Source: an uncultured archaeon
Lineage (GTDB): Archaea; Aenigmatarchaeota; Aenigmatarchaeia; CG10238-14; SCSR01
Direction: 5' to 3'
NCBI GenBank assembly: GCA_964512235.1
Contig: CAZEGD010000001.1
Span: 42,874-106,873 of the forward strand
Length of the DNA stretch: 64,000 bases
Both the position numbers and the translations under genes were made by a program. Of the stretch, positions 4,110 through 23,027 are shown piece after piece. Below the pieces are notes generated by a model. It saw only the letters and a list, made by a program, of their open reading frames with translations, was not told the DNA's origin and searched no databases. Each line of letters starts with the position of its first letter. Within the stretch, counting starts at the first letter, position 1.

Positions 4110-5447
4110 ATGAAATTTGAAGAACTAGGTATAGAAGAAAGAATACTGGGATCCATGGGTGAAATGGGATTCAAGACACCCACCAGGATACAGACAGAAG
4201 CGATCCCTGTGATAAAGAAGGGTAGAGACGTTATAGGACAGTCCGAGACTGGGTCTGGAAAGACTGCTGCCTTCGGAGTACCTATCATAGAGAATGTGGA
4301 GAGGGGAAGGGGGATACAGGCACTGGTGCTTGCGCCCACTAGGGAGCTTGCAAAGCAGATAGCAGGCGACTTTGAGAACCTTTCAAAGTACAAGAAACTC
4401 TTTATCGAGGCTGTTTATGGCGGAACTTCAATGAACCCGCAGATAAGGAATCTGAGGAATGCTGACATTGTAGTTGGCACTCCCGGAAGGATAATGGATC
4501 ATATGAGAAGGGGTACGTTGATTACCGACAGAGTCAAGATTTTCGTTCTGGACGAGGCTGACAAGATGATAAGCATGGGCTTCATAAACGACATAAAGAC
4601 CATAGAGAGGCACATTCCCAGACAGAGGCAGACTCTGCTCTTCAGCGCTACTATGCATGAGAGCTTGCTTGGGATAGCCAGGAGCTTCACAAATGACGCG
4701 AAGAGGATAAAGACTGCCAATAAGGTCAGTGATGACGTGCTGAAGCAGTTCTACTATGACATCCACAGGCAGGAGAAGTTCTCTCTGCTTGTCCATCTGA
4801 TAAAGAATGAGAATCCTGACCGTTTCATAGTGTTCTGCAACACTAGGAGAGATGTTGATGGTGTGATAAACAACCTGAAGATACAGGGTATCAGGGGGGA
4901 TTTCCTTCATGGAGGGCTCACTCAGAACAGGAGAGAGGATGCTATGGAGAGGTTCCACAAGGGAGAGACAAGGTGCCTTATAGCGACTGACGTTGCCGCG
5001 AGGGGACTTGACATCAAGGACATCAGCCATATCTTCAACTACAGCATACCAAAGACTATCGACGACTACGCGAACAGAATCGGAAGGACTGCCAGAGCAG
5101 GGAAGACAGGCAAAGCAATCACACTGCTAAGCAAGGACGACCACATGTCGTTCGGCAGGATACTGAGAAAGTTCTCGTATGAGATAGAGAAAGTACCTTT
5201 GCCGCAGTTCGAGAGCCTACCTTTCAGCAGGAACAGGCAGGACAGATATGGAAGAAGTGGCAGATTCTCGCGACCGAGTGGACGTTCCGGAGGCAGGCGA
5301 TACGGCAGCTCAAGCAGAGGCCGTTCAAACTATGGAAGTGGCCGTTCAGGGTATAGAAACTCAAGGAACAGCCGTTCCAGAGGACGCGGTTCTATGGGAG
5401 GCCGTTCAAGAAGCGGCAACTCCGGAAGTTTTAGAAGAAGGCGTTGA
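4110..5447 (+). CDS. DEAD-box ATP-dependent RNA helicase with an RG/RS-rich C-terminal tail
   Basis: Q-motif region FKTPTRIQ. Motif I SETGSGKTAAF. Motif II VLDEADKM. Motif III SAT. ATDVAARGLDI. NRIGRTARAG. The last ~70 aa are GRSGRFSRPSGRSGGRRYGSSSRGRSNYGSGRSGYRNSRNSRSRGRG... Confidence 0.92.
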   Translation: MKFEELGIEERILGSMGEMGFKTPTRIQTEAIPVIKKGRDVIGQSETGSGKTAAFGVPIIENVERGRGIQALVLAPTRELAKQIAGDFENLSKYKKLFIEAVYGGTSMNPQIRNLRNADIVVGTPGRIMDHMRRGTLITDRVKIFVLDEADKMISMGFINDIKTIERHIPRQRQTLLFSATMHESLLGIARSFTNDAKRIKTANKVSDDVLKQFYYDIHRQEKFSLLVHLIKNENPDRFIVFCNTRRDVDGVINNLKIQGIRGDFLHGGLTQNRREDAMERFHKGETRCLIATDVAARGLDIKDISHIFNYSIPKTIDDYANRIGRTARAGKTGKAITLLSKDDHMSFGRILRKFSYEIEKVPLPQFESLPFSRNRQDRYGRSGRFSRPSGRSGGRRYGSSSRGRSNYGSGRSGYRNSRNSRSRGRGSMGGRSRSGNSGSFRRRR

Positions 5448-10378: not shown

Positions 10379-10466
10379 GGGCCGGTAGCTTAGTTTGGTT
10401 GGAGCACTCGGCTGATAATCAAAATCAGATACCGAGCGGTCGCCGGTTCAAATCCGGCTCGGCCCA
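10379..10466 (+). tRNA. tRNA-Ile (anticodon GAU) with a 13-nt intron at 37/38
   Basis: Acceptor GGGCCGG/TCGGCCC. Anticodon stem CTCGG/CCGAG. Loop CTGATA + intron ATCAAAATCAGAT (10418-10430) + A. Intron UCAG pairs with CUGA (32-35), followed by the bulge AU|A. Confidence 0.85.
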
Positions 10467-10512
10467 CTCCAACGAAAAGATTAAAAATAGAGAGACTAAT
10501 GAAATATATTGG

Positions 10513-10634
10513 GCTCCCTTCGTCTAGTCCGGTCAAGGATCTCAGGCTTTCGGGTTATACTTAGAAAGCATTGAGCTGAAAAGCTGTGATAACGAAGATA
10601 CCTGATGACGCGGGTTCAAATCCCGCAGGGAGCA
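10513..10634 (+). tRNA. tRNA-Glu (anticodon UUC) with a 47-nt intron at 37/38
   Basis: Acceptor GCTCCCT/AGGGAGC. Anticodon stem TCAGG/CCTGA. Loop CTTTCG + intron 10553-10599 + A. Central helix CUUU/GAAG. Flanking 3-nt bulges. Inner helix GUUAU/AUAAC. This is a canonical BHB. Confidence 0.85.
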
Positions 10635-12757: not shown

Positions 12758-12843
12758 GCGGGGGTCCGATAGTCTGGTCAATTCGGCTAGCTTGAGGTGC
12801 TAGTGGGTTAGTCCCTACGTGGGTTCAAATCCCACCTCCCGCA
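12758..12843 (+). tRNA. tRNA-Leu (anticodon GAG), type II with long variable arm
   Basis: Acceptor GCGGGGG/CTCCCGC. Anticodon stem CTAGC/GCTAG, loop TTGAGGT. Variable arm TGGGTTAGTCCCTAC. T arm GTGGG-TTCAAAT-CCCAC. Confidence 0.9.
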
Positions 12844-14763: not shown

Positions 14764-14828
14764 TCCAATCAGAATTATGTAAGGTTATATAAAATAAAAG
14801 TTTATGTGTTCTGGAATGCTGTGTTGCA

Positions 14829-14852
14829 GGTTCAAATCCCACCTCCCACATT
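14829..14852 (+). repeat. Partial copy of the tRNA-Leu 3' end (T loop to acceptor end)
   Basis: ggttcaaatcccacctccc is identical to 12822-12840. One mismatch follows (a for g), then catt. Confidence 0.85.
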
Positions 14853-14932
14853 GTTTACAGCTGTAAATAAGAGTCCAATATTGCGGAAGGTAAGTTTGCT
14901 TTAAGATTCAAATTCAACTAATTAATAAGAAA

Positions 14933-15529
14933 TTAATTTCTAAAATTATATTTTTTTAAAAGTTCAGTATTTATACCTTCAATTAATAACTTTTCTTCCT
15001 CTGAAATTTCTCCTAATCTACCGATTTCAAAACTTAAAACAACTTTATTACCAACATATCTTTTAGGATGGTCAACAAATAAACTATAATATGAGAAAGA
15101 CGATGGAGAAGGCCAACTTAGTTGTTCATTTCTCGTCCTACAACTCAAAGTTACAAAAACATTTCCTCTATGCATTATAGCTTTAGCAATTTCTTCTGGA
15201 TTTTCTGTTTTAGCAGCCACATTTTTTATTTCAAAATTTACTTTTTCAAGATACTCTACAATTTCAAATAATTCATCTCGAAAATCTTTTTCTAATTCTT
15301 TTTGAACAGTTAATGCTGGAGTTGGCATACCTCTTGGACCAGGTGCATAAAGAACTCCGTCTTCAAATTTTATTAATTTCTCTGGTTCACCTTTTCCTCT
15401 TACATTAAAGCGTCCATACTGGAGAATGTCTGCAGAAAAATACCCAGATTTTCTACCTTCATATAAGATTTTAGGATATTCAACATGGCTTTGACCAGTA
15501 GTTAGTAAAGTACTTGTTTCTGCACCCAT
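14933..15529 (-). CDS. Hypothetical protein (198 aa) in a very AT-rich cassette
   Basis: ORF only. My hand count for 14941-15000 is 10 G+C of 60. Confidence 0.45.
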   Translation of the reverse strand: MGAETSTLLTTGQSHVEYPKILYEGRKSGYFSADILQYGRFNVRGKGEPEKLIKFEDGVLYAPGPRGMPTPALTVQKELEKDFRDELFEIVEYLEKVNFEIKNVAAKTENPEEIAKAIMHRGNVFVTLSCRTRNEQLSWPSPSSFSYYSLFVDHPKRYVGNKVVLSFEIGRLGEISEEEKLLIEGINTELLKKYNFRN

Positions 15530-15652
15530 ATTATCAAATTAATAAAGAACAGTTAAAGATTTATATATTTCCTCTAAGACCCCTTAGAGAAATCTTAAAT
15601 CTTTTCAAAACAATATAACAAAAAAGACGCACCGTACTTTTTGTTCTGTGCT

Positions 15653-15665
15653 CACCTCCCGCATT
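15653..15665 (+). repeat. Second partial copy of the tRNA-Leu 3' end
   Basis: cacctcccgcatt is identical to 12833-12845. The following gttt is shared with the flank of the 14829 copy. Confidence 0.7.
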
Positions 15666-15718
15666 GTTTTTTAGTTCTACATCAAGTTCAAGGTGGGCAT
15701 CCTAAAGAAAGTATCCTA

Positions 15719-16120
15719 TTATCCTTTCAATAGTATTTCCAACTTCATCCTTCTAAGCATCCTAGACCTTTTACCGGAGAAGATGTACAGTTCCTTTCCA
15801 TCATCAATTTCATAGAATCTGGTATTAGAGTAGTTCCCTATCACATGGTTCTGAGGATTATACTGGTTAAGGACCCTTTTGATTTTTTTGACTTCCTCGG
15901 GATACCTTGTTTTTTCTGAACCGAATCTAGGAAATGATACCTGATTTGTAGTGACGAGCAACTGAAAAGTGTACAAAAAATCTTCATCTGTAAAAGCCTT
16001 AAAAACTGAACTATCCCTGAAATCGGAATAACTTACCTCTAGATAATGTTTGTCCAGCTCATAGATTATTAGCCCCTTCAGGTCGAATATTTTATCTCCC
16101 ATATACGAGAATTCTTTCAA
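15719..16120 (-). CDS. Hypothetical protein (133 aa)
   Basis: ORF only. Confidence 0.4.
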   Translation of the reverse strand: MKEFSYMGDKIFDLKGLIIYELDKHYLEVSYSDFRDSSVFKAFTDEDFLYTFQLLVTTNQVSFPRFGSEKTRYPEEVKKIKRVLNQYNPQNHVIGNYSNTRFYEIDDGKELYIFSGKRSRMLRRMKLEILLKG

Positions 16121-16156
16121 TTAAATCTTAAATATGTAACATCCCTCGTAATATCT

Positions 16157-16882
16157 ATGCTGACCCAAGAAGAGTTGAATAAATCCTATATGAGGAGCGG
16201 TATATCCTCTGCTAAGATTTATGCACATATATGGGAATCTTTCTCAAGAGATAATGGAAAGACAAAACCAAGAGGATATTTGAGCCTATCACCTTCGATA
16301 GAGAGTTACGTTTTAGCGCAAGTTGGACATCTGAATAAGAAATTAGAGTGGAGTTCTATTGGTAAGGAAATCATGTCATTCTTCAAATGTTATCCATATT
16401 CTCCAGAGAATGTTCTAAGTTTGGGCTGTGGTATTGGCAATGGTTTAAAGACTGTGAAAAAATATGGAAGTAAACTACTTGTGGGAATTGACGTGGGTCT
16501 TCCGGTATTAAAATTGGCCAAGTCAAACTTGCCAGACGGAGATTTTGTATGTGCATCCTCCACTCATTTACCTTTTAGAGATTCAGTTTTCGACACGTTT
16601 ATAACTGGACATTTTTTTGAACCTATGACCAATCGGGAATCCAGATTTACATTTGAGGAAATCAAAAGATGCTCCATAAAAAATTGTCTATGGTTTGTTT
16701 CAGTCGAAGGGGAAGAGATTTTTGAAAGTTATCATATACAAAAATTCGGTAAGGGTGGGTGGGGTGTTATTCACAAACATCCATATATAAGCAAAGTTTC
16801 CCCAGTACCGGGTTCGGATTATAGACTGTGTGGTGCCGAATTTTTAGTCTTAAAGTCATTATACAGTGGTAATGATGAATGA
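16157..16882 (+). CDS. Class I SAM-dependent methyltransferase
   Basis: Motif I-like LSLGCGIGNG. Then GIDVGLPVLKLAK, then LPFRDSVFDTF (Methyltransf_11-like layout). Confidence 0.6.
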   Translation: MLTQEELNKSYMRSGISSAKIYAHIWESFSRDNGKTKPRGYLSLSPSIESYVLAQVGHLNKKLEWSSIGKEIMSFFKCYPYSPENVLSLGCGIGNGLKTVKKYGSKLLVGIDVGLPVLKLAKSNLPDGDFVCASSTHLPFRDSVFDTFITGHFFEPMTNRESRFTFEEIKRCSIKNCLWFVSVEGEEIFESYHIQKFGKGGWGVIHKHPYISKVSPVPGSDYRLCGAEFLVLKSLYSGNDE

Positions 16883-17222
16883 AAAGAAACTCATTCCAAT
16901 AGAGGACGCTTGGGACACCCCGCTCATATTTTATATTTACTTTGAGGGTGGAGTTGAAGAATACTACAATATTCCAAGGGACAAGAGAAGGGAATTCAAT
17001 AAAAAGTTTAAAAAAGAATATACCCCAAATTCAACCAGTTCAACTGTTCCAGACATTTCAATTGTCCGAAAGTTGTGTAGAAAATACGGGTCCTTTATGT
17101 TAAAGTCGCAGTTTGAAAAGCTGTCTACACTACCTGTAGGAATTTCGACTACTGGTAGAGAAGGGTATAGAAAATACGTAGTAATGGGATATAAAGTACC
17201 CAAAGATGAAGAAAACATTTGA
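16866..17222 (+). CDS. Hypothetical protein (118 aa)
   Basis: ORF only. Overlaps the preceding gene by 17 nt on the same strand. Confidence 0.35.
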   Translation: MVMMNEKKLIPIEDAWDTPLIFYIYFEGGVEEYYNIPRDKRREFNKKFKKEYTPNSTSSTVPDISIVRKLCRKYGSFMLKSQFEKLSTLPVGISTTGREGYRKYVVMGYKVPKDEENI

Positions 17223-17287
17223 ACATTACGAATGCTATGCAATCCTCAAAGGAACATATTTAAATCCAATGACTACTAGTTGATTTT

Positions 17288-19795: not shown

Positions 19796-20488
19796 GTGGT
19801 TACAGTGAAGATTGTGATTTCAATAGGCGGGTCGCTTCTGACTAGGAAGCTGAACGCAAAAAACTATAAAAAATACGCCAATGTCCTGCTGAAACTGTGG
19901 AAAAAAGGGCATAAAATCATAGTTGTGTGCGGTGCTGGCAAGTTAAAGGAATACATAAAAATAGCTAGAAAAATAGGTGCTGAAAAGTCTTTGCAGGACC
20001 GCATAGGGATTGATGGGACGCACATAAACGCAAAGATGCTCTTGGCTGCACTTGGTAAAGAAGGCCAATTGATACCATTGCAAACAGAGAGAGATGCGAT
20101 TAGAGAAGTGAAGAAAAAATTTGGAAGGAAAATCCTTGTTTGCGGCGGCTATGAAGCTGGTCACTCTACAGACTACGATGCTGCCATATTTGCAAAGGTC
20201 GTGAAAGCGGATTTAGTAATCAACGCAAGCAATGTCAGTGGAGTGTATGCCAGAGATCCGAAGAAGAAAGTTTTTGTAAAGAGATATAAGAAGCTGAGTT
20301 ACAAAGACTTTTTGAAAATTATAAGAAAGAATCCCCAGATACCAGGCGAATATAAGCTCTTTGATCTGCCTGGGGCAAAAGTGCTTGCAAAGACAAAAAT
20401 TAAACTGGTAATGATAAGCGGAAAAGATCCTAAAGAGATACTGCGTGCTGTAAAAGGCAAACATAAGGGAACAGTCGTGGAAGGGTAA
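19796..20488 (+). CDS. pyrH: Uridylate kinase, archaeal type
   Basis: ISIGGSLL, VVCGAGK, GIDGTHINAKML, GGYEAGHSTDYDAAIFA and NVSGVYARDPKK. GTG start. Confidence 0.85.
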   Translation: MVTVKIVISIGGSLLTRKLNAKNYKKYANVLLKLWKKGHKIIVVCGAGKLKEYIKIARKIGAEKSLQDRIGIDGTHINAKMLLAALGKEGQLIPLQTERDAIREVKKKFGRKILVCGGYEAGHSTDYDAAIFAKVVKADLVINASNVSGVYARDPKKKVFVKRYKKLSYKDFLKIIRKNPQIPGEYKLFDLPGAKVLAKTKIKLVMISGKDPKEILRAVKGKHKGTVVEG

Positions 20489-20539: not shown

Positions 20540-20633
20540 GCCTCAGTAGCTCAGTTAGTGAGAGCACCACACTGGTAATGTGGAGGTCGCGGGTGCGATT
20601 CCCGCCTGAAAGTCTGAGACTTGGTGAAAGGCT
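20540..20633 (+). tRNA. tRNA-Thr (anticodon GGU) whose 3' acceptor strand is interrupted by 20 nt
   Basis: GCCTCAG-TA-GCTC...GAGC-A-CCACA-CTGGTAA-TGTGG-AGGTC-GCGGG-TGCGATT-CCCGC-CTGA[aagtctgagacttggtgaaa]GGC-T. Without removal of 20610-20629 the acceptor stem cannot form. Confidence 0.7.
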
Positions 20634-20715
20634 CTCTCCGCGACTTTATTTAGTGGTTCAAATATCAACCTCGACGTAAGGAGGATTTAAATCTTTTGTT
20701 CTATTTAGTTTCTAT

Positions 20716-21066
20716 ATGAAAATCAGATGTTTGTATGGTTTGGCACCATTAGTAAAATTCAAATCTTATGCAGTTGCTCACCCAGAAACCAATACTATTG
20801 TTTTGTATGAACATTTGAGAGGATTACCAAAACCAATTAAAAAAGTTATTGTTGCGCATGAAGAAATTCATATAAGATTTCCATGGATAAAACATGAAGA
20901 ATTTGGAGATTTAGATCATATGTTAATAGAAACTATTGCATCATTAGATTCAACTAACCCTATAGATTATGTACATATGTCAAAGGTACTTAATGAAGAA
21001 CTTTTAGAATGGTGTTATAAAAAATACCAGCAAGATTTTAAATTTAATAAAAGCCCTCAAAAATAG
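20716..21066 (+). CDS. Small HExxH protein (116 aa, putative minimal metallopeptidase)
   Basis: VIVAHEEIHIRF contains HEEIH. It is the only ORF between the tRNA-Thr gene and the downstream copy of its 3' end. Confidence 0.4.
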   Translation: MKIRCLYGLAPLVKFKSYAVAHPETNTIVLYEHLRGLPKPIKKVIVAHEEIHIRFPWIKHEEFGDLDHMLIETIASLDSTNPIDYVHMSKVLNEELLEWCYKKYQQDFKFNKSPQK

Positions 21067-21079
21067 AACCTTTGTACAC

Positions 21080-21097
21080 ATTCCCGCCTGAGGCTCT
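21080..21097 (+). repeat. Uninterrupted copy of the tRNA-Thr 3' end
   Basis: attcccgcctgaggctct equals 20598-20609 plus 20630-20635, that is, the tRNA 3' end without the 20-nt insertion. Confidence 0.85.
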
Positions 21098-21103
21098 GTA
21101 AAT

Positions 21104-22528
21104 CTAAAGAATTTCTCTGGGTTCGTATTCAGCCTCTTTTGAATATCTGCCAATCAACTCGTTTGCTTTTTCGACCACTTTGTAGATTTGTCGTGCTGCA
21201 TTCCCAGTAAGGCGCATTTTTTCTTCCAATATATTCTTTATTTCCTCTTTGTTCAAAGGAAAGTCTGAGTCGTTCCCAAGCAATTCTGCCAAATTGTTGT
21301 CATAACTACCTTCCTGTCTCATTCTTAGAGCTTCCCCGACCGCATATTTCTTGATTATATCATGCGCATCTTCCCTTCCCATGCCTCTTTTAGTGGCAGC
21401 GTTCAGAAGCTCTGTCGTAGCTAGGAATGGCATGTGTCTATCATTCTCTGCTTCAATCGTTTTATCATATGCGCCCATTTCATTCAAGACAGTCAACATA
21501 GTCTCAACAAGACCGTCAGAAGCATAGGACATACCAGGAATAATCACCCTTCTAACGACAGAACAAGACACGTCACCCTCTTCCCACTGGTCCCCTGAAA
21601 TTAATGAGACTCCCATCGCAAACATCTTTAATAATTTAGCAAAACCTGAAACTCTCTCAGAGCTGCGTGTATTCATTTTGTGCGGCATTGCGCTAGAGCC
21701 TACTTGACCTGGTTTAAACCCCTCCGTCACAAGTCCAAGCCCAGACATCAATCGCATTGTTTTACTAAGATTCTCACATGACGCGCTGAGACTAGAAAGA
21801 TTTGACGCTAGTTTATAATCCAAAGACCTTGGATACACTTGACCAGGTGAAATGAGTATGTTTTCAAATCCGAGATGCTTGGCAATCATCTCCTCCAATT
21901 TCTCCACTTTTTCCTCACTGCATAGAAGGCTTAGCAGGTCAGATTGAGTACCAATAGCTCCCTTTAATCCCCTTAGCGGGTATGTCTGTATGAAATTCTC
22001 GAAATCAACCAAATGTCCGTAGAGTTCTTCTGCCCACATCGAGAATCTTCTTCCAAGTGTCGTTAGTTGTGCTACCTGATGATGGGTCCTTCCAGACATT
22101 ACTAAATCTGCATAGTGTTCTGCTTTTTCAACAAGATGTCTAAGCACAGAGACATATTTTCCAAAGATTATTTCGGCTGTTCTTTTGATTTGCATTTGTT
22201 CTACATTGTCTGAAAGATCTCTAGAAGTCATTGGTCTATGGATTAGTTGGTATTTTCCACCGGCAGCTTCGTTAAAGGCCTGAATCTTTGCTTTTATGTC
22301 GTGCTTTGTAACTCTTTCAATCTCTTTTATTCTCTCCAAATCAATATTTTCCTTAGCGTTTTCATATGCAGCTATTGCATCGTCCGGAATATCCACCCCT
22401 AAGTCTTTTTCACCCTTCAGAACAGCAATCCACAATTCCCTTTCAAAGAGATTTTTACCATACTCTGAAAAGATATAATTAATTTCATCTGTGGCATATC
22501 TTAGAGATAAAATATCTGGGTTTACCAC
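21104..22528 (-). CDS. purB: Adenylosuccinate lyase
   Basis: Fumarate-lyase signature GSSAMPHKMNTRSSE. N-terminus LSLRYATDEINYIFSE is typical of PurB. Confidence 0.9.
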   Translation of the reverse strand: MVNPDILSLRYATDEINYIFSEYGKNLFERELWIAVLKGEKDLGVDIPDDAIAAYENAKENIDLERIKEIERVTKHDIKAKIQAFNEAAGGKYQLIHRPMTSRDLSDNVEQMQIKRTAEIIFGKYVSVLRHLVEKAEHYADLVMSGRTHHQVAQLTTLGRRFSMWAEELYGHLVDFENFIQTYPLRGLKGAIGTQSDLLSLLCSEEKVEKLEEMIAKHLGFENILISPGQVYPRSLDYKLASNLSSLSASCENLSKTMRLMSGLGLVTEGFKPGQVGSSAMPHKMNTRSSERVSGFAKLLKMFAMGVSLISGDQWEEGDVSCSVVRRVIIPGMSYASDGLVETMLTVLNEMGAYDKTIEAENDRHMPFLATTELLNAATKRGMGREDAHDIIKKYAVGEALRMRQEGSYDNNLAELLGNDSDFPLNKEEIKNILEEKMRLTGNAARQIYKVVEKANELIGRYSKEAEYEPREIL

Positions 22529-23027
22529 AAAATCACTAAGAATACATTATAAGGAAAAATATTTATCATGCATAGAAACATTTATATACCACTCTCGAGT
22601 AGTGATAATTGTGAGACCTAAAGAACCTTATGCTGCTTGGTTGGATAGAACGTTGGGTAGGGAAATTCTGTTCACTGAATTAAAAAGTAACGGGAGTATC
22701 TTATGTTATACAAAAGATGGTACAGAACTAGATACTTCGATGTTGCAGCTGATAGCAGTTGGTTCTAATCATGATGCTATTCTCGGATATCGTCCACAGT
22801 TGAAAACAAAACTATTAGCAGAAAATTATCAATTATTCTTAGGTTCATTCTTTAAAAGAATGAAAAGTCGGGAAAGGAAAGTGGATAGATTCGAAAAACG
22901 TAAATTGGTCTCAAGTGGAAATAATGGATTTCCTCCAACACCTCCATCCTCTATAGGAGAGATAGCAGCAAATGAAATTTTTTACACCTATAAAGTGAGG
23001 GTACAACCTAGTGAGAGAATTAAATAA
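22491..23027 (+). CDS. Hypothetical protein; true start probably downstream (GTG near 22600)
   Basis: ORF only. The 5' part overlaps the purB start. The TATA-like atttatata at ~22585 suggests a shorter product. Confidence 0.3.
   Translation: MAYLRDKISGFTTKSLRIHYKEKYLSCIETFIYHSRVVIIVRPKEPYAAWLDRTLGREILFTELKSNGSILCYTKDGTELDTSMLQLIAVGSNHDAILGYRPQLKTKLLAENYQLFLGSFFKRMKSRERKVDRFEKRKLVSSGNNGFPPTPPSSIGEIAANEIFYTYKVRVQPSERIK

Follow-up and report, generated by a model that had tools for sequence, protein, structure and literature searches.

Non-canonical introns in archaeal transfer RNA (tRNA) genes, of the hBHBh' type in which a bulge-helix-bulge (BHB) is flanked by further helices, were described by Marck and Grosjean (2003) and Sugahara (2008) and are covered by two reviews (PMC4090602, PMC4033280). 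In the relevant parts of the review literature intron positions reach 59/60 'etc.', with 'acceptor stem regions' named there in general terms (PMC12397907). The origin of archaeal tRNA introns at odd positions is still debated, the choice being between protection of attachment (att) sites and delivery by mobile elements. Randau and Söll (2008), whose idea is summarised in PMC4090602, hypothesised that tRNA att sites are shielded from integrating elements when the gene is split or carries an intron. Sugahara et al. (2012) proposed that the tRNA-Thr(GGU) gene of Caldiarchaeum subterraneum gained an intron via an element with an intron-bearing attP (PMC3293823). DPANN endonucleases with an extra loop have in addition been linked to more disrupted tRNA genes (PMC5829648). 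Here we describe a tRNA-Thr(GGU) gene of an uncultured, Aenigmatarchaeota-like archaeon, located in a 64,000-nucleotide stretch of contig CAZEGD010000001.1 that we call the window. The 3' strand of its acceptor stem is interrupted by 20 nt, which probably constitute a functional non-canonical BHB intron sitting inside an att-type direct repeat left by an insertion at the 3' end of the tRNA gene.

The gene lies on the plus strand, downstream of that for UMP kinase (19796-20488, plus strand, Pfam AA_kinase), which provides a synteny anchor for orthologous tRNA loci. Exon 1, assigned with ARAGORN and the Rfam tRNA model, spans 20540-20608 and covers Sprinzl positions 1-68, ending ...CCCGC CUG. 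The putative intron, AAAGUCUGAGACUUGGUGAA, occupies 20609-20628 at Sprinzl 68/69, an assignment that draws on the list of BHB pairs, the folding energy and a test of registers. Exon 2 (20629-20633) supplies A69, G70, G71, C72 and the discriminator U73, and a perfect acceptor stem results when the two exons are joined. In the DNA the locus reads GCCTCAG...GCGGGTGCGATTCCCGC CTGA, then aagtctgagacttggtgaaa, then GGCT CT. The gene has a normal D-arm, a normal anticodon arm (CTGGTAA, anticodon GGT) and a normal T-arm. ARAGORN places tRNA-Thr(ggt) at 20540-20614, with the top three acceptor pairs mismatched in its drawing, and the Rfam match, at 55 bits, covers only model positions 4-67 (20543-20609), so the 3' strand of the acceptor stem is truly interrupted. 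Sequence, ARAGORN and Rfam therefore bear out an earlier note on this DNA, which had described a normal tRNA-Thr(GGU) body with an acceptor strand split by 20 nt. Flanking adenines allow the insert to be placed in two registers, 20610-20629 or 20609-20628, and a splice motif exists only in the second. The 20-mer is found once in the window.

Might the 20 nt, or the repeat described below, be an artefact of assembly or binning, produced when strain variants were joined into a chimera? The source is a metagenome, and there is a hint of heterogeneity in the assembly graph. The contig of a closer relative (L131, 1-1175), whose kinase falls in the same cluster of at least 90% identity as that of the window, ends inside tRNA-Thr at GATTCCC (...GCGATTCCC), where the 18-nt repeat core begins; it is uninformative on the insert, and its break may reflect such heterogeneity at the att core. 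However, an independent Logan assembly of SRR9705735 (L001, 959 bp) is identical over the tRNA, insert, the open reading frame (ORF) that we call ORF116 and the 18-mer, reproducing all 959 bp exactly. A one-off assembly slip is thus unlikely, and an artefact would not make a precise splice motif. We regard this explanation as extremely improbable; reassembly, which the earlier note thought might remove the 20 nt, retains them.

Is the gene interrupted or broken? The geometry of the BHB is well established and two other tRNA genes of the window display it. These are tRNA-Ile(GAT) (10379-10467), with a 13-nt intron at 37/38, and tRNA-Glu(TTC) (about 10513-10627, plus strand), with a 47-nt intron (10553-10599) at 37/38 in a strict hBHBh' arrangement (h=5, h'=5). 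In both, the last bases of the exon form a 4-bp central helix with the 3' portion of the intron, the bulges are of 3 nt and cleavage follows the second bulge base. Since these two genes obey the standard geometry we consider that the BHB register has been applied rightly to tRNA-Thr, and their introns indicate that the host uses BHB splicing.

In the tRNA-Thr precursor the predicted outer helix h consists of two pairs between exon bases, C20601-G20631 and C20602-G20630 (CC/GG, the guanines being G70 and G71). The central helix H has 4 bp (CGCC/GGUG), three G-C and one G-U: C20603-G20626, G20604-U20625, C20605-G20624 and C20606-G20623. Its 5' strand, CGCC at 20603-20606, corresponds to T-stem bases 63-65 plus acceptor C66 and would pair with the GGUG near the 3' end of the intron. 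Bulge 1 comprises U20607, G20608 and A20609, bulge 2 A20627, A20628 and A20629 (A69). Helix h' has 5 bp, 20610-20614 with 20618-20622, closed by a UGA loop (20615-20617). With both h and h' present the motif is a strict hBHBh', h being at the minimum length of 2 bp. The splicing endonuclease would cut after the second base of each bulge (UG/A and AA/A) and ligation would then give ...CUG-AGGC-U, a normal tRNA-Thr. Joining 20608 to 20629 on paper indeed yields CUG-AGGC-U with a perfect 7-bp acceptor stem, a full cloverleaf, G1-C72, C2-G71 and U73, and the sequence across the junction is that of the intronless orthologues in two relatives, L088 and L089.

The earlier note had found no convincing BHB at either junction when drawing by hand. 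That does not hold, as a strict motif exists in the register CTG/A...AA/AGGC; the 69/70 register is rejected because its central helix carries two mismatches. Of the features that had been picked out within the 20-mer, the small hairpin AGTC-TGA-GACT survives as helix h', extended to 5 bp, while CTGAGAC, a near-copy of the acceptor strand, plays no role. Used as the acceptor strand, the latter would leave an 8-nt bulge between T-stem and acceptor stem together with a C-A mismatch, and this candidate was discarded. Calculated folding energies are -28.3 kcal/mol with the BHB enforced, -30.8 kcal/mol for the minimum free energy structure and -26.0 kcal/mol for a cloverleaf in which the intron bulges out of the acceptor stem, and on this model the BHB conformer is energetically within reach at a small cost.

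A motif of this kind is not readily obtained by chance. Random 20-mers of the base composition of the window, or shuffles of the actual 20 nt, were placed at the same site. A strict motif (h of at least 2, H of 4 and h' of at least 3 bp) that restores the tRNA occurred in 6.5e-5 of the random 20-mers and 1.8e-4 of the shuffles, and one matching the observed quality (h'=5) in 2.5e-6 and 2.5e-5, respectively. This bears directly on the alternative that a junk insertion of 20 nt, for example a recombination scar at the crossover, killed the gene, that the BHB is fortuitous and that the cell relies on another gene for this tRNA. Such a pseudogene would accommodate three facts: the genomic acceptor stem is broken, the insert is located within a recombination core and our view of this genome is 64 kb. 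However, a strict BHB in the tRNA-restoring register is expected by chance at about 1e-4 or less, the body differs from the orthologues at two D-loop bases only and scores 55 bits, the promoter is conserved, and archaeal genomes usually carry one gene per anticodon (PMC3293823). There is neither a decayed body nor a lost promoter, and a route to the product is available. A pseudogene therefore appears improbable. Since the 20-nt insert folds into an archaeal splicing signal, the sequence argues that the gene is most likely interrupted, not broken.

The second component of the locus is a repeat. The 18-mer ATTCCCGCCTGAGGCTCT comprises A58 to C72, the discriminator U73 and two trailer bases (CT). 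By sequence comparison the copy at the tRNA, which we term attL-like, occupies 20598-20635 on the plus strand as ATTCCCGCCTG, the 20-nt intron and AGGCTCT, and an intronless, attR-like copy of the tRNA 3' end lies at 21080-21097 on the same strand. The latter is the only exact match to the 18-mer, whereas shuffled sequence yields 0.01 matches even when up to three mismatches are tolerated, and it is 6 nt from the purB stop codon (21104-21106). The intact copy that the earlier note had placed here, next to that stop codon, is thus confirmed. The identity of the repeat ends sharply on both sides and there is no tRNA-like sequence upstream of the downstream copy. Once the intron is removed, the repeat flanking the insert is an exact 18 nt; after splicing the attL-like copy would equal the attR-like one, whereas in the DNA only the tRNA-proximal copy is interrupted. 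As judged from its sequence, the 18-mer forms an internal boundary such as site-specific integration into the 3' end of a tRNA gene leaves behind.

Between the two copies lies an insert of 444 bp ('module A', 20636-21079, to which no strand is assigned). Its G+C content is 29.8%, as against 41% for the window and 40.7% for purB, and it is absent from the orthologous sites of L088 and L089; it is compositionally foreign. The only gene in the interval is ORF116, in agreement with the earlier description of a 116-codon reading frame with an HEEIH motif.

Since the downstream copy, which lies on the same strand, is a perfect 3' end with no interruption, one might ask if it is the functional one, in which case about 482 nt including ORF116 would be removed as a giant intron or through a trans arrangement. 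The mature tRNA sequence can be restored by 15 excisions, two of them local and 13 via the downstream copy, and a BHB occurs only for 20609-20628. None of the 13 tRNA-restoring excisions of 482 nt has a BHB, each showing one to four mismatches in the central helix. Moreover a T-rich, terminator-like stretch follows the local 3' end, and the local 20-nt intron already suffices. Such an arrangement is very improbable indeed. The earlier note had itself offered two readings. The first, an intron combined with an att-like duplication, is favoured by the evidence, though the intron is at 68/69 rather than 69/70 and the 'element' is of only 444 bp, with no integrase. The second held that the gene is disrupted and the downstream copy original; the downstream copy may well be the original 3' end of the host, but the body, promoter and splice motif of the gene are intact.

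ORF116, an orphan gene with an HEEIH motif and the sole cargo of the insert, occupies 20716-21066 on the plus strand and has a TATA-like box, GGATTTAAATC, upstream at about 20684. No convincing family was found, Pfam giving one sub-threshold match (15.3 bits against a cut-off of 23.7) and NCBIfam nothing, and comparison with PHROGs gave two weak matches (E values of 0.06 and 0.14). A database of 5.8 billion sequences contains one homologue (P0002, 66% identity, with HEEVH), and the same single sequence was returned by an exhaustive profile search of 1.8 billion representatives. Differences between the two by codon position number 28, 19 and 44, which marks ORF116 as a real coding gene. Homology extends from the TATA-like box to the stop codon. 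The homologue follows PRC and PqqD-like genes on an unrelated contig and has no tRNA beside it. An AlphaFold model of ORF116 has a pLDDT of 39. All three assemblies that carry the homologue (L085, 7691-7750, L086 and L087) end 59 bp past its stop codon, and this shared end suggests a repeat or strain variation just beyond.

The earlier note had suggested a comparison with relatives and this proved instructive. Metagenomic contigs L088 and L089 encode UMP kinases that are 80% and 78% identical to that of the window, with the same tRNA-Thr(GGT) directly downstream, an order also seen in L131. In L088 and L089 the tRNA has a contiguous 3' end, ...GATTCCCGCCTGAGGCT, without the 20 nt, and the downstream block is missing too. 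The 20-nt insert is therefore lineage-specific. The tRNA body of the window differs from theirs at two D-loop bases; all three have the acceptor stem, anticodon arm, T-loop TGCGATT and upstream promoter box in common. In L089 the GAAACATTTATATACCAC segment lies 4-5 nt past the tRNA and L10e comes next, as in the window; blastn aligns L089 1372-1406 with window 22575-22609 at 91% identity. In the window this promoter-like segment spans 22571-22609 on the plus strand and forms the distal boundary of the DNA that L089 lacks. Compared with L089, the window is longer here by about 1.94 kb, which begin exactly at the 3' end of the tRNA gene and comprise the ORF116 module, the 18-nt copy and purB. 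Since L088 has yet another gene 3' of tRNA-Thr, so that window, L089 and L088 all differ here, the 3' flank of this tRNA gene is an insertion hotspot.

A more distant contig, L090, has a UMP kinase 59% identical to that of the window; a tRNA close to it shares the acceptor stem and has an unbroken 3' end, ATTCCCaCCTGAGGCTCT. This contig lends weak support to gain of the intron, weak because the anticodon region is aberrant, which leaves orthology unsure, and L090 was set aside as an outgroup. ARAGORN calls this tRNA (5291-5386) as tRNA-Tyr although the acceptor stem is of the Thr type (GCCTCAG/CTGAGGC and U73). Its anticodon-loop region is of 29 nt with an internal duplication (ACTGC...GCAGT twice), and within it no choice of splice sites yields U33 and no strict BHB was found.

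We note two oddities of the tRNA-Thr(GGU) loops. The T-loop (20593-20599) is UGCGAUU in the window, L088, L089 and L131, with G replacing the near-universal U55, and the D-loop (20553-20561) is without GG, being AGUUAGUGA in the window and AGUCAGUUA in two relatives. These could be compensating changes in the tertiary contact between D-loop and T-loop, a suggestion made from the sequences. The T-arm sequence is also present in unrelated metagenome tRNAs; a metagenome scan with a T-arm 20-mer retrieved 39 loci, all of them unrelated tRNAs sharing this T-arm.

How might the intron and the repeat have come together? The distal repeat at 21080-21097 would derive from insertion of foreign DNA into the 3' end of the tRNA gene, the inserted DNA now being reduced to a 444-bp remnant of low G+C content with one orphan gene, and the intron sitting in the attL-like repeat. 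The route by which the intron arrived we infer, and three routes can be envisaged. In the first, modelled on Sugahara et al. (2012), the attP consisted of a tRNA-Thr 3' end in which the intron was already present. Crossover in ATTCCCGCCTG would have given the host gene the intron and displaced the original, intronless 3' end to the purB side. The reconstituted tRNA here has an intron and the displaced fragment does not, just as in the attP-delivery model. As tRNA-Thr(GGU) is normally a single-copy essential gene the intron would have had to be functional on arrival, and this, together with the fit of GGUG to CGCC, makes this route the one we favour, albeit tentatively. In the second the intron was gained afterwards in attL, where selection may have favoured it as a block to excision and re-invasion, a course of events that we consider conceivable if somewhat doubtful. 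In the third, which seems unlikely, the intron was already in the host and the crossover took place in AGGCTCT. Because the two copies now differ, the insert would be locked in place and the site spoiled for further integration. Put at its strongest, the proposal is that an element delivered a ready-made BHB intron via the att site into the only tRNA-Thr(GGU) gene of the host, stranding the intronless 3' end and fixing its own cargo; in this complete form we advance it with reserve.

The alternative is that intron and integration are independent. The intron would have been gained in some other way, for instance by transposition of an intron, either earlier or later than an unrelated insertion at the tRNA 3' end, and its overlap with the core would be a coincidence or the outcome of later selection for att blocking; the anatomy would be the same and the history different. 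An 18-nt core is about one quarter of a tRNA, so chance overlap is not rare. The genome is rich in introns, with three of the seven tRNAs of the window (tRNA-Thr, tRNA-Ile and tRNA-Glu) interrupted, no intron-bearing attP was found in the viral contigs, and intron transposition is documented in Thermoproteales (Fujishima 2010, as cited in PMC4033280). On the other hand GGUG is tailored to CGCC, which requires a donor with the same exon sequence, and none similar occurs in the window. An intronless copy in cis with intronless relatives is, moreover, what the attP model predicts (PMC3293823). Independent origins are possible but, in our assessment, rather unlikely.

Several points weigh against a functional intron in an att-type repeat, or against a connection between the two. 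We infer splicing of the 20-nt intron from the sequence. Because the 3' strand of the T-stem is taken up by the central helix, BHB and T-arm are mutually exclusive and the tRNA body must partly unfold prior to cleavage; the outer helix has only 2 bp. A splicing endonuclease gene was not seen within the 64-kb window, which is also the extent over which the number of tRNA-Thr(GGU) genes was assessed. No second copy of the 20-nt intron was found in the relatives, the 39 metagenome loci or the viral contigs, and with no homologous intron covariation lends no support. L088 and L089 alone do not separate gain of the intron from loss, because they are sisters (89%) and the window falls outside both (79%). 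An independent intron would by chance fall within the 18-nt core in about a quarter of cases, and its association with the att site could be coincidental.

Further adverse points concern the element. No integrase or recombinase is present in the insert or among the ORFs scanned over about 8.1-31.7 kb, and the insert does not qualify as an autonomous, integrase-bearing integrative element. For this reason we treat it as a remnant or non-autonomous piece and describe the locus as an integration footprint, not an element. The predicted circular or attP junction was formulated as TTGTACAC-ATTCCCGCCTG(with or without the intron)AGGCTCT-CTCCGCGAC and also as ...AGGCTCT-CTCCGCG, the predicted empty-site junction being GCGATTCCCGCCTGAGGCTCTGTAAATCTAAAG. 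IMG/VR gave no matches to either reconstructed attP junction and none to the intron or to the T-arm with a variable gap, and the circular junction was not found in these viral contigs.

The 18-mer on its own did have an IMG/VR match, to a GC-rich, bacterial-type, tRNA-like RNA that was dismissed. This RNA, of about 125 nt (L082, 1622-1748, also L083 and L084), has an acceptor stem GCCTCAG/CTGAGGC and a 3' end equal to the 18-mer, is not recognised by ARAGORN and is unrelated to the archaeal locus.

Beyond the repeat lies purB, encoding adenylosuccinate lyase (21104-22528, minus strand, Pfam Lyase_1 and ADSL_C) and convergent with the tRNA gene. Its closest homologue among 5.8 billion proteins is 70% identical and lies beside a histone gene, not tRNA-Thr; the nearest relatives are from DPANN, Bathyarchaeota and bacterial bins, and its place next to the tRNA is lineage-specific. 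By contrast the neighbouring UMP kinase has relatives at about 80% identity plus its own cluster of at least 90% identity. In genomes of GTDB the best purB matches are 55-61% identical and there is no tRNA near purB in the eight closest loci (L002-L009), and synteny is not seen. Exact-protein look-ups for purB and UMP kinase have no strain variants or empty-site contigs on record. No third att copy was found at the far end of the purB block, and an 11-nt repeat, GAAAGTCTGAG, at 21259 was dismissed as about one such repeat is expected by chance per 3 kb. ORF178 (22491-23027, plus strand) overlaps the start of purB and has no family match; a box at 22580-22590 that is common to L089 suggests that its real start is near 22610.

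A second att-like array is present in the window, as judged by sequence comparison. The 3' end of tRNA-Leu(GAG) (12758-12843), GGTTCAAATCCCACCTCCCGCATT, recurs twice downstream in the same orientation, at 14829-14851 (22 of 23 bases) and at 15653-15668 (a 14-nt exact match), and the segments in between hold a prephenate dehydratase gene and ORFs with no assigned function but no integrase. L088 joins the homologue of about 14809 to that of about 17247, the intervening 2.4 kb of the window (14810-17246) being extra DNA that starts at the first tRNA-Leu copy. A bolder version of our proposal would be that single-gene cassettes bounded by tRNA-end repeats and lacking an integrase are a recurring means of gene uptake in these reduced genomes. 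ORF116 would be one candidate; the tRNA-Leu array at 12.8-15.7 kb and the block containing purB are possible others.

The archaeal nature of the host is evident from core genes of the window, which include those for TBP, ribosomal protein L10e, an MtrA-like protein and dCTP deaminase. Named homologues of the UMP kinase (uridylate kinase) are mostly from Candidatus Aenigmatarchaeota. Standard tRNA finders under-report DPANN tRNAs, as in this window one intron in the 3' acceptor strand was miscalled and one gene with a 47-nt intron was missed; the latter, tRNA-Glu(TTC), was not called by ARAGORN in default mode or at the Rfam gathering threshold but was detected by the ARAGORN intron mode.

How does the locus compare with known systems? 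It resembles the described hBHBh' introns in having a 4-bp helix between two 3-nt bulges, with a further helix on either side, in cleavage predicted after the second bulge base, in being short (20 nt), in recruiting exon bases and in the occurrence of other BHB introns in the same genome. It differs in its position, 68/69 in the 3' acceptor strand, in drawing its central helix from the 3' strand of the T-stem and in its host, which is an Aenigmatarchaeota-like member of DPANN and not of Thermoproteales. The position is uncommon, yet the intron belongs to a known kind and does not represent a new kind of system. If spliced as proposed, it would offer a natural substrate in which a BHB competes against the T-arm, useful in studies of recognition by the DPANN endonuclease.

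Elements of the pNOB8 and SSV type that integrate in tRNA genes likewise leave a tRNA reconstituted at the near border, around an insert that differs in composition and is missing in relatives. Here, though, there is no integrase, intact or split, one copy of the repeat contains a 20-nt insertion and the insert is about ten times smaller than the smallest of those elements. The connection to the idea of Randau and Söll (2008) that the earlier note had drawn is apt, since the intron interrupts exactly the 18-nt recombination core. Integration nevertheless evidently happened, and the intron may have come with the invader or lock it in, instead of having kept it out.

The closer precedent is that of Sugahara et al. 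(2012, PMC3293823). The same tRNA species is concerned, the reconstituted gene has an additional intron that is missing from the duplicated fragment, the insert lies between directly repeated tRNA sequence and relatives possess intron-free alleles. There the fragment is of the 5' end, the intron is at 24/25, the insert is of 1.8 kb with a recombinase gene and the variants occur inside one population. Here an 18-nt fragment of the 3' end is involved, the intron sits at 68/69, no recombinase is encoded by the 444-bp insert and the intronless versions are those of other species-level lineages. In one review, more 'snapshots' of insertion events have been called for (PMC4033280), and this locus is one: the gene carries an intron, its orthologues in sister lineages do not, and the same 18 nt recur in cis without the intron, beyond foreign DNA. 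Should delivery by an element prove to be the explanation, it would be, after Caldiarchaeum subterraneum, the second natural snapshot of tRNA intron gain from a mobile element and, both for DPANN and for the 3' acceptor strand, the first.

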